Part shown: positions 376 through 21,568 of the stretch, one piece after another
Position numbering within the stretch: position 1 is the first letter of the stretch
Layout: each line of letters begins with the position of its first letter
IMG/VR virus record: IMGVR_UViG_2531839374_000011
Reading direction: 5' to 3' (one strand)
Source: a virus
Taxonomy: Duplodnaviria > Heunggongvirae > Uroviricota > Caudoviricetes
DNA length: 24,188 nucleotides
The notes under the pieces: model-generated
What the model was told of the DNA's origin: nothing
Database searches by the model: none
Seen by the model: the letters and a program-made list of their open reading frames with translations, nothing else
Position numbers and translations under genes: made by a program

Positions 376-1237
376 CAAACGTATGGCGCAGAACGTGTGT
401 GAGTTGACCGCGAGGGAGCACGATAGACGTTTTTTCCATCACGGATAAAAATTGAAAATAGCAGTCTGTGAAGAAATTGAACCCATCAAGCGCCATGATC
501 TCTTCGTAAAGCTCTTTACTGATAGGGATGCTTCTGTTTTTCTTCCCCTTCGTTCTGACAAAGGTAATTCGGTATTTGGTCACCTGTGAGCGGGTAAGAT
601 TTACGGCTTCACGCTAGCGTGCGCCTGTGCTTAAGCATATCTTAACTACCAGTGCCAGAATTGGGTCCTGACGTTTGCAATCAGCCAGCAATTCAACAAT
701 CTGCTCATGGGTAAGCCATGCCATCTCTTTTTCTGCGATGGTGAATTTTCGCATGTTCTCCAGTGGGTTCGGATACGACCATTCGCCCAGACGGGATAGT
801 TCGCTAAAAACACTACTTAGATAGCTTTGCTCCAGGTTAATGGTGACCGGGCTTGCTCCTTTCTTCCATTTCTCGCTGAAGTAGATCCCGCCTGTCAGGC
901 GTTTATCTCGATAGTGGGCAAACATTTTAGAGGTGAGATCGGTTGCAAGAGGATTGCCCAGAGCGTCAACCATCAACAGCAATTTGTCATAGACATGCTG
1001 CCCAGCTGTCAGAGATTTACCATGTAGTTTGAACCATAGCTCAACCACGTCTTTCAGTGTTCGACGATCCACTGATTCACCCAGCCAGGGCTTTGCTTCG
1101 GTTTCTTCCATCGTGTGGCGCTCAAAAGCCAGTGCTTCGCCTTTGGTGGCGAATTGTTTACGCACACGACGCCCACTTCGTCCGGCGGGGTAACATTCGC
1201 AAAGCCATTTCCCAGTGGTGAGTTTTCGTACTGCCAT
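376..1237 (-). pseudogene. int: P2/186-type tyrosine integrase, disrupted (in-frame TAG at 614-616, 3' end cut by IS911 at 375)
   Basis: N-terminus MAVRKLTTGKWLCECYPAGRSGRRVRKQF... preceded by GGAGGG RBS; track ORFs 614..1393 and 284..583 are in the same frame separated by TAG exactly where the box-I motif TGAR-W-SEA is expected; HVLRHTF (HxxR) is present but the catalytic Tyr region is replaced by the IS911 end. Confidence 0.85.
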
Positions 1238-1425: not shown

Positions 1426-2194
1426 GGTAATGACTCCAACTTACTGATAGTGTTTTATGTTCAGATAATGCCCGATGACCTTGTCATGCAGCTCCACCGA
1501 TTTTGAGAACGACAGTGACTTCCGTCCCAGCCTTGCCAGATGTTGTCTCAGATTCAGATTATGTCGCTCAATGCGCTGAGTGTAACGCTTGCTGATAACG
1601 TGCAGCTTTCCCTTCAGGCGTGATTCATACAGCGGCCAGCCATCCGTCATCCATACCACGACCTCAAAGGCCGACAGCAGGCTCAGAAGACGCTCCAGTG
1701 TGGCCAGAGTGCGTTCACCGAAGACGTGCGCCACAACCGTCCTCCGTATCCTGTCATACGCGTAAAACAGCCAGCGCTGACGTGATTTAGCACCGACGTA
1801 GCCCCACTGTTCGTCCATTTCAGCGCAGACAATCACATCACTGCCCGGTTGTATGCGCGAGGTTACCGACTGCGGCCTGAGTTTTTTAAGTGACGTAAAA
1901 CCGTGTTCGAGGCCAACGCCCATAATGCGTGCACTGGCGCGACATCCGACGCCATTCATGGCCATATCAATGATTTTCTGGTGCGTACCGGGCTGAGAGG
2001 CGGTGTAAGTGAACTGTAGTTGCCATGTTTTACGGCAATGAGAGCAGAGATAGCGCTGATGTCCGGCAGTGCTTTTGCCGTTACGCACCACGCCTTCAGT
2101 AGCGGAGCAGGAAGGACATCTGATGGAAATGGAAGCCACGCAAGCACCTTAAAATCACCATCATACACTAAATCAGTAAGTTGGCAGCATTACC
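1426..2194 (-). mobile_element. IS1, 769 bp, with terminal inverted repeats GGTAATG(A/C)T(C/G)CCAACTTACTGAT
   Basis: Ends match the second IS1 at 20101-20868; internal proteins are identical; one extra base relative to copy 2. Confidence 0.95.
1441..2139 (-). CDS. IS1 transposase as a single fused InsAB' reading frame (232 aa)
   Basis: Continuous ORF ...[21 protein letters not shown]...; versus copy 2 the sequence GGCCTCGAACACGG carries one extra base (plus-strand C at about 1908) that places insA in the insB frame upstream of the A6C slippery run. Confidence 0.85.
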
Positions 2195-2203: not shown

Positions 2204-2395
2204 TTATCGTGAGTTTTTAGTACAGATTTTTTTGGATTTACTAATAGTTCCATCATTGCAAACAAATTTTCCATCGGAGGTACAGTGAGAGACACCTCCC
2301 TTTTTCCCAGAACAAGGATAATTTTTAGCATAGGTAGTTAGTGGGCTTAATAACAAAGAGCATGATAAAACCACAAAAAATACTTTACCAAGCAT
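2204..2395 (-). CDS. Small secreted Cys-rich protein (63 aa; predicted signal peptide ending ...TTYA, about 40-aa mature part with 4 Cys)
   Basis: ATG at 2393-2395 preceded by GGGAGGA RBS with 4-nt spacer; hydrophobic N-terminus [23 protein letters not shown]; lies in an AT-rich patch between IS1 and cI. Confidence 0.5.
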
Positions 2396-2410
2396 AGTTT
2401 CCTCCCGGTA

Positions 2411-2986
2411 TTATCTAACATATTTAACTGTTAAACTTATAATTTTACCAATTATTTCAATGTCTTCTATCTTACATTCGAAGGCTCTGTTTCCACCCTC
2501 GACGAAGATTCTTCCACCGGGTAAACGAGTAATGTCACGGATCGTTACTTCGCCATCAATACTTATTACCCATTTACCATCACGTATGTCATCAAATTCT
2601 TTATCACAAATAAATTCAGAATTGTTATCTGTGATGACAAAAGGTTTTTTAAACGTAGAGGGTAGAAATCCCTTATCAAAAATATAAAAACCGTCTTCAC
2701 GCAAGGCACCATCAGATAATACATATTTAGCAACTTCCATAGTATTTGTATTACCTGAAGTTTGCTTTGAACCATGTCCGGTTGTGAGCCAATTAAGCGA
2801 GGTGCCCGTTTCAAGGGCGCACTGGATTACCCATTCTGCTGGGAATGAGTCACGCATGTAGCGTGTGGCGAGTGTACTTTTAGAGATTCCTAAATGATCG
2901 CACAACGCCTGTCGAGTCTTGAATCCATAAGCTTCTACCATGCGCTCTATGGCGCCTCGTCCGCCTTTCTCCAAATTCATGGTCAC
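2411..2986 (-). CDS. cI: Phage 186 CI-like immunity repressor (191 aa), apparently intact
   Basis: EAYGF...LGISKSTLATRYMR...CALETG...NWLTTG N-terminal HTH pattern and ...LPGGRIFVEGG..FECKIEDIEIIG C-terminal pattern as recalled for 186 CI; position between int and a divergently transcribed apl-like gene. Confidence 0.75.
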   Translation of the reverse strand: MTMNLEKGGRGAIERMVEAYGFKTRQALCDHLGISKSTLATRYMRDSFPAEWVIQCALETGTSLNWLTTGHGSKQTSGNTNTMEVAKYVLSDGALREDGFYIFDKGFLPSTFKKPFVITDNNSEFICDKEFDDIRDGKWVISIDGEVTIRDITRLPGGRIFVEGGNRAFECKIEDIEIIGKIISLTVKYVR

Positions 2987-3004
2987 TCCAAGTGAACTTT
3001 TATC

Positions 3005-3033
3005 TTGACGATTTCACTGTGCAATCGTATGTT
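3005..3033 (+). promoter_or_regulatory. Candidate sigma70 promoter, rightward (pR-like), in the cI/apl switch region
   Basis: TTGACG (3005-3010), 17-bp spacer, TATGTT (3028-3033), about 70 bp upstream of the apl-like start. Confidence 0.45.
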
Positions 3034-3105
3034 TATGGTGTTCACAAAATACAAACGATCCGTATTCGTCCTGATTAATCATCATTAAACGAGGAATGTT
3101 GCATC

Positions 3106-3327
3106 ATGAGACCTAACATTTCAATCACTCTTACCACGCCTCATGTGACTATTGAACGCTATAGCGAGCTGACAGGGCTATCCATCGATACCATCAATGA
3201 CATGTTGGCTGATGGACGCCTTATCCGTCACCGTCTGCGCAAAGATAAAAAACGCGAAAAAGTGATGATCAACATAGCAGCAATGACCGTTGATGCGCTT
3301 TCAGAATGCAATCTAAACCTTAATTAG
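3106..3327 (+). CDS. Apl/Cox-like small DNA-binding protein (excisionase/repressor of lysogenic promoter), 73 aa
   Basis: Size, basic C-terminus and position first in the rightward early operon opposite cI; assignment is by synteny with 186 rather than recognised sequence. Confidence 0.5.
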
Positions 3328-3536: not shown

Positions 3537-3608
3537 TGAAGTGGCACACTGAATTTGGCCACCTGAACAGAGGTGATATGCTCACCTCAGAACAACACAG
3601 GTGCTCCA

Positions 3609-4777
<1,169 letters not shown>

Positions 4778-4785
4778 CCACTTCA

Positions 4786-5425
4786 CGCCAGAGTTTTATT
4801 TGAGATCGCAAACAGGGAGGTGGCTTATTACAACATAAGGCAGGAGTTTAATTACTCAACTGAAATTACTGATTTCATGAAAGCGGTATATTTCCTGTAT
4901 CTCAATCGTCACGGTTACCGTGGTTTATGTCGCTATAACAAGAGCGGGCATTTCAACATTCCCTACGGCAATTATAAAAATCCGTATTTCCCTGAAAAAG
5001 AAATTCGCGCATTTGCAGAAAAAGCCCAGCGAGCAACGTTTATCTGCGCCAGCTTTGATGAAACGCTGGCGATGTTGAAGGCGGGGGATGTGGTGTATTG
5101 CGATCCACCGTATGACGGTACGTTTTCCGGCTATCACACTGATGGTTTCACTGAAGATGACCAGTATCACCTAGCATCCGTTCTTGAACATCGGTCATCA
5201 GAAGGACATCCGGTCATTGTTTCTAACAGTGACACATCCCTGATCCGTTCGCTGTATCGCAATTTTACTCACCACTATATCAAGGTAAAACGCAGCATCG
5301 GTGTGGCAGCTGGCGAGGGTAAATCAGCAACAGAAATCATTGCTGTTTCCGGGCCGCGCTGCTGGGTGGGATTTGATTATTCGCGTGGCGTGGATAGTTC
5401 TGCCGTGTACGGAGTACGTGCATGA
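4786..5425 (+). pseudogene. dam: Dam-like N6-adenine DNA methyltransferase lacking its N-terminal about 90 residues (removed by IS911)
   Basis: ...[22 protein letters not shown]...VYCDPPY... aligns with E. coli Dam from about residue 95 (FRRAVLFLYLNRYGYNGLCRYN...VYCDPPY); the frame is open back to the IS911 end at 4785 and the SAM-binding motif I region is absent. Confidence 0.85.
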
Positions 5426-20077: not shown

Positions 20078-20155
20078 TTTTTATTTGTTTTCAATTGAGT
20101 GGTAATGCTGCCAACTTACTGATTTAGTGTATGATGGTGATTTTAAGGTGCTTGC

Positions 20156-20431
20156 GTGGCTTCCATTTCCATCAGATGTCCTTCCTGCTCCGCTACTGAA
20201 GGCGTGGTGCGTAACGGCAAAAGCACTGCCGGACATCAGCGCTATCTCTGCTCTCATTGCCGTAAAACATGGCAACTACAGTTCACTTACACCGCCTCTC
20301 AGCCCGGTACGCACCAGAAAATCATTGATATGGCCATGAATGGCGTCGGATGTCGCGCCAGTGCACGCATTATGGGCGTTGGCCTCAACACGGTTTTACG
20401 TCACTTAAAAAACTCAGGCCGCAGTCGGTAA
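20156..20431 (+). CDS. insA: IS1 InsA (91 aa)
   Basis: [43 protein letters not shown]... ending ...[14 protein letters not shown]. Confidence 0.95.
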
Positions 20432-20853
20432 CCTCGCGCATACAACCGGGCAGTGATGTGATTGTCTGCGCTGAAATGGACGAACAGTGGGGCTACGTCG
20501 GTGCTAAATCACGTCAGCGCTGGCTGTTTTACGCGTATGACAGGATACGGAGGACGGTTGTGGCGCACGTCTTCGGTGAACGCACTCTGGCCACACTGGA
20601 GCGTCTTCTGAGCCTGCTGTCGGCCTTTGAGGTCGTGGTATGGATGACGGATGGCTGGCCGCTGTATGAATCACGCCTGAAGGGAAAGCTGCACGTTATC
20701 AGCAAGCGTTACACTCAGCGCATTGAGCGACATAATCTGAATCTGAGACAACATCTGGCAAGGCTGGGACGGAAGTCACTGTCGTTCTCAAAATCGGTGG
20801 AGCTGCATGACAAGGTCATCGGGCATTATCTGAACATAAAACACTATCAGTAA
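20350..20853 (+). CDS. insB: IS1 InsB frame (expressed as InsAB' by -1 frameshift at the A6C run 20407-20413)
   Basis: -1 frame overlapping insA; TTAAAAAAC slippery run present. Confidence 0.9.
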
Positions 20854-20868
20854 GTTGGAGTCATTACC

Positions 20869-21333: not shown

Positions 21334-21412
21334 CGCTGCCGCCATTTTGTCGCCATCGTTAAAAAACAGTGCTTCTAACATCATGATTTTAAAAGGCATA
21401 AATTTCAGACAA

Positions 21413-21456
21413 CAAAAAACCCATCAACCTTGAACCGAAATGGCGGGGTTGATGGG
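21413..21456 (-). terminator. Rho-independent terminator downstream of ybjL
   Basis: Minus strand: 10-bp stem CCCATCAACC/GGTTGATGGG followed by a T6 run. Confidence 0.55.
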
Positions 21457-21568
21457 CTCCACAAAATGGGGACATCAAAGAAAAGCAGTGGCACTAATTA
21501 AGACTGATGCCCTGCGGAAAAGTTCTGCGGTTGTGCAAAAAAATTTCATTTTCAGGGCAACTTCAGTT

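Follow-up and report, generated by a model that had tools for sequence, protein, structure and literature searches.

We examined a 24,188-nt stretch of a Caudoviricetes genome (IMG/VR record IMGVR_UViG_2531839374_000011; the whole stretch is hereafter called the window), with a focus on the small open reading frame (ORF) at positions 2204-2395, which lies between int and cI in a heavily degraded prophage resembling phage 186. The features of this region are the following, with the evidence for each.

376-1237, minus strand: int pseudogene, delimited by alignment to intact int.
1417-1425: left copy of the IS1 target duplication, AAGCAAAAG, 9 bp.
1426-2194, minus strand: IS1, between the ydcA-like gene and int, with its transposase reading in the operon direction; terminal inverted repeats located.
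2195-2203, no strand assigned: right copy of the IS1 target duplication, AAGCAAAAG, immediately next to the stop codon; defined against the uninterrupted intact prophage (L001).
2204-2395, minus strand: YdcA-family gene of 63 codons plus stop, with an ATG start; ORF list, NF007463, phrog_6000, PF27300 on homologues and purifying selection.
2204-2206, minus strand: TAA stop codon of the YdcA-family gene.
2207-2326, minus strand: mature Cys-rich cationic peptide following the predicted signal peptide, codons 24-63, 40 residues.
2276-2306, plus strand: reported hairpin and T-run, a by-product of the ORF codons and no significant structure; fold z-score and terminator scan.
2327-2395, minus strand: predicted Sec signal peptide, codons 1-23.
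2401-2406, minus strand: Shine-Dalgarno sequence GGGAGG, 5 nt before the ATG, within the cI-ydcA spacer (2396-2410); read from the sequence.
2411-2980, minus strand: cI repressor gene, intact, the upstream gene of the same operon; Pfam Phage_CI_repr and Phage_CI_C.
2981-3105, no strand assigned: divergent cI/apl switch region, with pR and pL assigned by analogy with 186; near-identical to the intact prophage and to BL21.
3106-3327: apl/cox-like gene.

The genes cI (2411-2980), the ORF (2204-2395) and int follow one another in this order, all on the minus strand, and the cI stop codon (2411-2413) is separated from the ATG of the ORF by a 15-nt spacer that reads TACCGGGAGGAAACT on the coding strand. 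The initial annotation had described a secreted, Cys-rich product with a strong ribosome-binding site, a typical signal peptide and four cysteines in a mature part of roughly 40 residues, encoded in an AT-rich patch, and this description holds. GGGAGG is placed 5 nt upstream of the ATG, and the GC content of the ORF is 34% against 49% for the window. The N-terminus, judged by eye and by alignment, shows the n/h/c pattern of a predicted signal peptide, with a basic n-region (MLGK), a hydrophobic core and a putative cleavage site between TYA and K. The resulting mature peptide would have 40 residues, with four Cys and nine Lys or Arg against two Asp or Glu (pI 9.6, net charge +7). Across the homologue alignment, the signal-peptide region varies freely in sequence yet stays hydrophobic, and Ala at position -1 is kept in at least 90% of the sequences; K-12 YdcA, a relative of this protein, has likewise been described as predicted periplasmic. 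Cys12 sits in a lipobox-like VLSC context, but a lipoprotein is unlikely, as Cys12 is missing from most homologues and the Ala-x-Ala-type site is conserved. The hairpin with a T-run that had been reported as an element inside the ORF (2276-2306, plus strand) did not survive analysis: its folding energy of -8.7 kcal/mol corresponds to z = -0.44 and was equalled by 59 of 200 shuffles, and the terminator scan did not call it. It is thus attributable to chance, and a role as intrinsic terminator is ruled out.

The protein had been treated as an orphan, whereas comparison with family models placed it in the catalogued YdcA family, to which chromosomal ydcA of E. coli K-12 also belongs. It matched the NCBIfam model NF007463 (PRK10040.1-2) with an E-value of 7.7e-34 over model positions 1-58 of 58, at 115.3 bits where the curated threshold is 93, and phrog_6000 with an E-value of 9.2e-34 over positions 1-56 of 56; precomputed matches to Pfam PF27300 ("YdcA") were present on close homologues. 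A Pfam-A scan with a model set that did not hold PF27300 gave only a sub-threshold GULLO2-like match (E = 0.068). Invariant columns were drawn from an alignment of 29 homologues, E. coli K-12 YdcA (b1419) included, in which the core behind the signal peptide is almost invariant. All 15 of these columns, which form the motif P-C-S-x-x-K-G-G...C...F-x-C-x-D-G-x-x-S-x-S-K...C, are present in the window protein. Members of the family (PF27300, NF007462-NF007464, phrog_6000), K-12 YdcA among them, are alike in size (57-63 aa), in their variable signal peptide and in the four-Cys core. K-12 YdcA is 51% identical to the window protein and has the whole core motif in common with it, but differs in being chromosomal and in matching model NF007462, while the window gene represents the prophage subtype NF007463 within a lysogenic operon. 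The gene is therefore already known, in the sense that it is catalogued and that curated models exist; in RefSeq, its copies in E. coli appear either as "YdcA family protein" or as "hypothetical protein". When 1.84 billion representatives were searched with a family profile, built from an alignment without the K-12 sequence (as was the structure model below), 461 clusters were recovered at E-values up to 0.001.

We further compared the 29-codon core with other prophage copies from E. coli, Klebsiella and Yersinia, and obtained pN values of 0.015-0.03 against pS values of 0.8-1.0. Synonymous sites are saturated and replacement changes are almost absent in the core codons, and the YdcA core is under very strong purifying selection. 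Saturated pS with pN near nil excludes a fortuitous frame in AT-rich DNA, the objection that the initial annotation had raised against its own reading of a real gene; with the full-length matches to curated models, that reading stands. Conservation in related prophages, which had been proposed as a further check, was found in prophages of E. coli, Klebsiella, Yersinia and Hafnia.

Several observations suggest that expression of the ORF is tied to that of the repressor gene. The cI protein of the window is identical at 189 of 189 residues to that of the intact E. coli prophage. A terminator scan of the coding strand from cI to int in the intact relative called no terminator, and a promoter and terminator scan of the coding strand from cI to the ORF start in the window called neither; the 15-nt spacer between cI and the ORF is itself too short for a terminator. 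The 186 record describes a lysogenic operon that starts at pL/pE, includes cI and int and ends at a terminator past int, and by this analogy the switch region is the presumed source of a cI-ydcA transcript. Given the missing terminator calls, the short spacer, the 186 operon, and the intact cI and switch region, we infer that one transcript from the lysogenic promoter(s) covers both cI and the ORF, and that lysogens make the protein. The literature searched contained no expression data, phenotype or functional study for the prophage copy.

Insertion sequences have reshaped both flanks of this operon. The AAGCAAAAG 9-mer is present once and uninterrupted in the intact E. coli prophage, and the earlier observation that the IS1 target duplication abuts the stop codon is correct, with 2195-2203 touching 2204-2206 and the ORF undamaged. 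IS1 splits int from the presumed cI-ORF transcript yet leaves the ORF whole. Within this IS1, the ORF at 1441-2139 is a continuous frame of 232 codons with a GTG start, which looks like a fused InsAB' and not like the frameshift-dependent insA/insB' pair. A second, independent IS1 insertion, with CAGATATAA in place of AAGCAAAAG as its target duplication, was located at a distance of 9 bp within the AT-rich ydcA-int spacer, in identical orientation, in E. coli F1267 (L002, NZ_OY754416, 3207-3992). The stretch between ydcA and int appears to be a hotspot for IS1, with the ORF unharmed by either insertion. Compared with the intact prophage, int has a nonsense change at W208 (TGG to TAG, window position 615), and an inverted IS911 copy (1-375), which itself runs off the window edge, ends the gene after nt 862 of 1053. 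Hence, int is inactivated twice, whereas cI and the ydcA-like gene stay intact.

Decay extends well beyond int. The two IS911 copies, at 1-375 and 3537-4786, are inverted to each other and bracket the segment int'-IS1-ydcA-cI-apl-cII'. The right copy interrupts cII after codon 61 and is directly followed by a 5'-truncated dam methylase gene (4820-5425), a junction that points to an IS-adjacent deletion of the remaining cII together with the fil, DUF5347, DUF2732 and traR-like genes. The second IS1 of the window (20101-20868) is located at the distal end of the late region of the prophage, and the rybB sRNA gene (Rfam RF00110, 105 bits) was located about 540 bp past it, at 21411-21489 on the minus strand. 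Since intact relatives adjoin rcdA, the prophage probably occupies the rcdA-rybB interval.

The gene is widespread. The exact 63-residue protein occurs on at least 1000 contigs in the protein collection, and a full-length copy of the ORF region adjoining cI was detected in 627 of the 5426 complete E. coli genomes (about 12%), BL21 among them, where it lies at 842867-843058 of CP060121. Shigella strains also appear to be carriers, and a 100%-identical partial protein entry is labelled Shigella flexneri. This label and the number of IS1 and IS911 copies suggest that the window itself may come from a Shigella-like host. Relatives were further found on 505 IMG/VR viral contigs. Intact E. coli prophages beside rcdA have the order int, YdcA-family gene, cI, with the same 15-nt spacing from cI, and divergent members (58-70% identical) lie directly after cI in prophages of E. 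coli, Klebsiella, Yersinia and Hafnia and in Haemophilus phages HP2/S2, where the 60-codon homologue is unannotated in the record. The family is also found in quite different places. It adjoins ogr, and not cI, in a P2-like prophage of Xenorhabdus, and lies within the head/tail module in unrelated phages of Moraxella and Acinetobacter. In Moraxella and other bacteria it is, in addition, a single-copy gene in ordinary or core chromosomal neighbourhoods, and in K-12 the context is rydC-ydcA-hokB. YdcA was not found in those enterobacterial Peduoviridae of the phage collection that have been cultured. This scattered placement is the pattern of a moron captured repeatedly.

In phage 186, the cI stop codon meets the int start with no gene between them, just as the initial annotation had stated. 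The corresponding gap in other members of the group holds varied cargo. In E. coli and Klebsiella prophages, YdcA is followed, before int, by a KAP-NTPase gene (L098, 4198-5529) that matches the PADLOC candidate PDC-S20; in phage vB_EcoM-813R9, a PD-Lambda-1 protein (L097, 3591-5267) fills the gap instead of YdcA; and in Hafnia, the gap also holds a 347-aa protein without a family (L109, 3247-4290). The cI-int gap is thus a hotspot for defence-type cargo in 186-like prophages, and earlier work described this gap as a hotspot of defence genes in K139-like phages (PMC9122126), as well as a minor integrase-primase hotspot for P2-like prophages (PMC13586616). The earlier suggestion of a moron or lysogenic-conversion peptide is therefore upheld for position and moron behaviour, on the evidence of the cargo gap and of the homologues in unrelated phages, but not for conversion, a function demonstrated neither by this analysis nor by the literature searched.

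Structural comparison offered a further lead. AlphaFold2, run with the family alignment, predicted a small beta-hairpin domain at residues 30-58 with confident scores (block pLDDT of 84-92). In a profile HMM search against the PDB, the full profile had Legionella Dis2 (Lpg0823) as its top match (E = 1.5e-4), which became weak (E = 0.1) when the signal peptide was removed. Foldseek against the PDB also returned Dis2 (E = 0.056, probability 0.98, 38% identity over 39 columns), with the next match at E > 3; hhalign of the family alignment against a Dis2 orthologue gave 57% over 15 columns, and the Dis2 orthologue P0227 carries a precomputed PF27300 match. No other solved structure is a plausible relative, and a relationship between YdcA and Dis2 is probable but unproven. 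The two have the motif CSxxGG-x3-C...VCNxGxxS in common, and the window protein would be exported and disulfide-rich like Dis2, but Dis2 consists of two tandem lobes within the Dot/Icm type IVB machine, whereas the window protein is a single free domain with prophage lysogeny neighbours. Dis2 (PDB 7MUC/7MUD, chain AN) looks like a tandem duplication of a YdcA-type Cys-rich domain, with weak but independent support from sequence, fold and Pfam. Previous studies described Dis2 as having two similar lobes and five disulfides and as a part of the Dot/Icm cap that lies beside the outer membrane (PMC8486379), and as touching DotK, DotC and DotD while being dispensable and without known function (PMC12716638). 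The Dis2 papers regarded the protein as species-specific and without structural relatives.

Domain fusions and neighbouring genes were examined for similar clues. Among the 150 best representatives, we found a recurrent layout of signal peptide, YdcA domain, low-complexity linker and nuclease, in which the nuclease belongs to one of three unrelated folds: SNase (P0111, P0225), Endonuclease_NS (P0150, P0173, P0190) and PLDc_2 (P0195). Another protein (P0117) has a YdcA domain fused to a T6SS VasL segment, and five (P0078-P0082) contain two or three tandem YdcA copies. The partner of YdcA in HP2 and in a metagenomic relative is a secreted protein of family PF12869 (OB-fold-like), in swapped gene order. 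In Moraxella, a cassette of YdcA and a membrane-anchored gene of about 220 aa occurs both on the chromosome (L085, 5001-5884) and in phage Mcat15 (L093, 3938-4764); this partner has an N-terminal membrane anchor, no family match, and 38% identity between the two loci. Comparison of the Moraxella partner with the HP2-type PF12869 partner showed them to be unrelated. The idea of a universal two-gene system was dropped, given the unrelated partners and the E. coli prophage copy, which has no fixed partner. The median net charge of the YdcA core domain is +4, and nuclease-fused domains are the least basic (0 to +3), which weakens simple electrostatic DNA binding and favours docking or tethering. 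Taken together, the fold, fusion and neighbour leads would fit a periplasmic domain with a loose link to machinery or enzymes that handle nucleic acids on their way across the envelope.

We consider it very probable that the ORF is a functional YdcA-family moron in the lysogenic operon, encoding an exported, disulfide-bonded mini-protein; this high confidence covers identity and the logic of expression, and not an exclusion function. The peptide would be made in lysogens from a cI-ydcA co-transcript that starts at the lysogenic promoter(s), exported by Sec and cleaved by signal peptidase I after TYA. Oxidation of the four invariant cysteines would then form two disulfides, and the product would be a strongly basic periplasmic mini-domain of 4.3 kDa. 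The mature peptide has a calculated mass of 4265 Da in reduced form, which two disulfides would lower by about 4 Da. Such a domain might dock on a component of the outer-membrane-proximal periplasm and alter how the lysogen envelope handles incoming phage or foreign DNA, with superinfection exclusion or another defence-type lysogenic conversion as the outcome. This last step, an action at the envelope against incoming phage or foreign DNA, is put forward only tentatively and may well prove wrong. An exclusion-type role is proposed because Glo of Vibrio phage K139 (Peduoviridae) is alike in position and compartment. In K139, where the order is cI-orf2-glo-int, Glo lies in the corresponding slot and orientation, and the K139 GenBank record annotates it as periplasmic and as acting in phage exclusion, the exclusion phenotype being known for Glo only. 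Glo has 137 aa against 63 aa for the window protein, and BLASTP between the two indicated no homology (E = 0.22 over 30 residues). Glo is nevertheless the best working analogy for the window protein. A search of PADLOC-DB 2.0 with the window protein gave no family match at E-values up to 0.01. The ordinary chromosomal contexts of the family fit a housekeeping or stress role equally well as a phage-directed one.

Such a host-directed role was weighed as an explanation in its own right. The prophage copy might act like chromosomal YdcA in tolerance of envelope stress or of acid and organic-acid stress, directly benefiting the lysogen. The 51% identity and shared core motif of the two proteins point in this direction, as does the presence of the family in core chromosomal contexts of Moraxella and other bacteria. 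In E. coli W, a ydcA deletion mutant grows poorly in 300 mM 3-hydroxypropionate, and ydcA has been reported to be acid-induced under YdcI (PMC7642389). However, this phenotype comes from a single condition, has no mechanism and is overridden by yieP deletion, and the repeated placement in prophage cargo hotspots beside defence genes points more to conflict between phages; we regard a host-fitness role as plausible but unlikely. Alternatively, the fusions to three unrelated nuclease folds (150 best representatives) and the pairing with secreted OB-fold-like PF12869 proteins in HP2 and its metagenomic relative could mean that YdcA binds DNA, or sits where DNA enters, and that the free form hinders phage, transformation or conjugation DNA. 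The basic core domain (median net charge +4) is consistent with this, and phage-borne copies occur in Haemophilus, Moraxella and Acinetobacter, which are naturally competent genera. Yet the nuclease-fused domains, with net charges of 0 to +3, are the least basic and better suited to anchoring, and tethers typically have such an N-terminal place, followed by an extended low-complexity linker; moreover, PF12869 has no shown function and E. coli is not notably competent. A periplasmic nucleic-acid module is thus rather improbable.

Two other explanations fared worse. With 40 residues, a net charge of +7, four Cys and hence a defensin-like composition, the peptide could be imagined as a secreted antimicrobial or bacteriocin-like toxin against competitors, and a comparative-genomics study of Pseudomonas protegens lists a YdcA family gene among the loci that it associates with antimicrobial activity (PMC13541209). 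That association is correlative, though, and neither in the window nor in the relatives examined is YdcA adjoined by an immunity, maturation or export gene. A peptide exported by Sec alone would stay in the periplasm, and YdcA also serves as the N-terminal module of enzymes and as a single-copy gene in core chromosomal contexts, so that a toxin is very unlikely. The heavy degradation of the prophage (int nonsense change and truncation, cut cII, IS1 and IS911 copies) and the shortness and AT-richness of the ORF could in turn suggest a fortuitous frame or a functionless, decaying remnant. The fortuitous part of this explanation is refuted by synonymous saturation with near-absent replacement change, and the full-length matches to curated family models also speak against it. 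The ORF, its RBS, cI and the switch region are all intact, and two independent IS1 insertions fell just outside the stop codon, which together make a functionless ORF scarcely credible. A functional moron with a tentative role at the lysogen envelope is therefore the reading we retain.

That reading would place the window protein beside other small phage or prophage envelope proteins, namely Llp of T5, Cor of phi80 and N15, Sim of P1 and SieA of P22. All four block superinfection. Two of them, Llp and Cor, are lipoproteins with FhuA as the specific receptor that they bind, and phages of the 186/P2 type use LPS. The broadest interpretation we can offer is that YdcA is a widespread, unrecognised periplasmic docking module at outer-membrane-proximal crossings of macromolecules, which would form the lobes of Dis2, tether three classes of nuclease and, in the free Peduoviridae form expressed from the cI operon, block competing phage or foreign DNA. 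We hold this to be a long shot; if it were true, it would amount to a new class of superinfection exclusion in about one eighth of complete E. coli genomes, including BL21.

Overall, a large group of 186-like prophages carries, directly behind the repressor gene, an almost invariant exported mini-protein of 40 residues. YdcA is easily testable, being tiny, nearly invariant, probably expressed with the repressor and present in BL21. Should it prove to be an exclusion or envelope-conversion factor, the prophage defences would gain a protein of very small size, the YdcA family and with it ydcA of K-12 would acquire a function, and Dis2 in the Legionella Dot/Icm machine would have a first functional handle.
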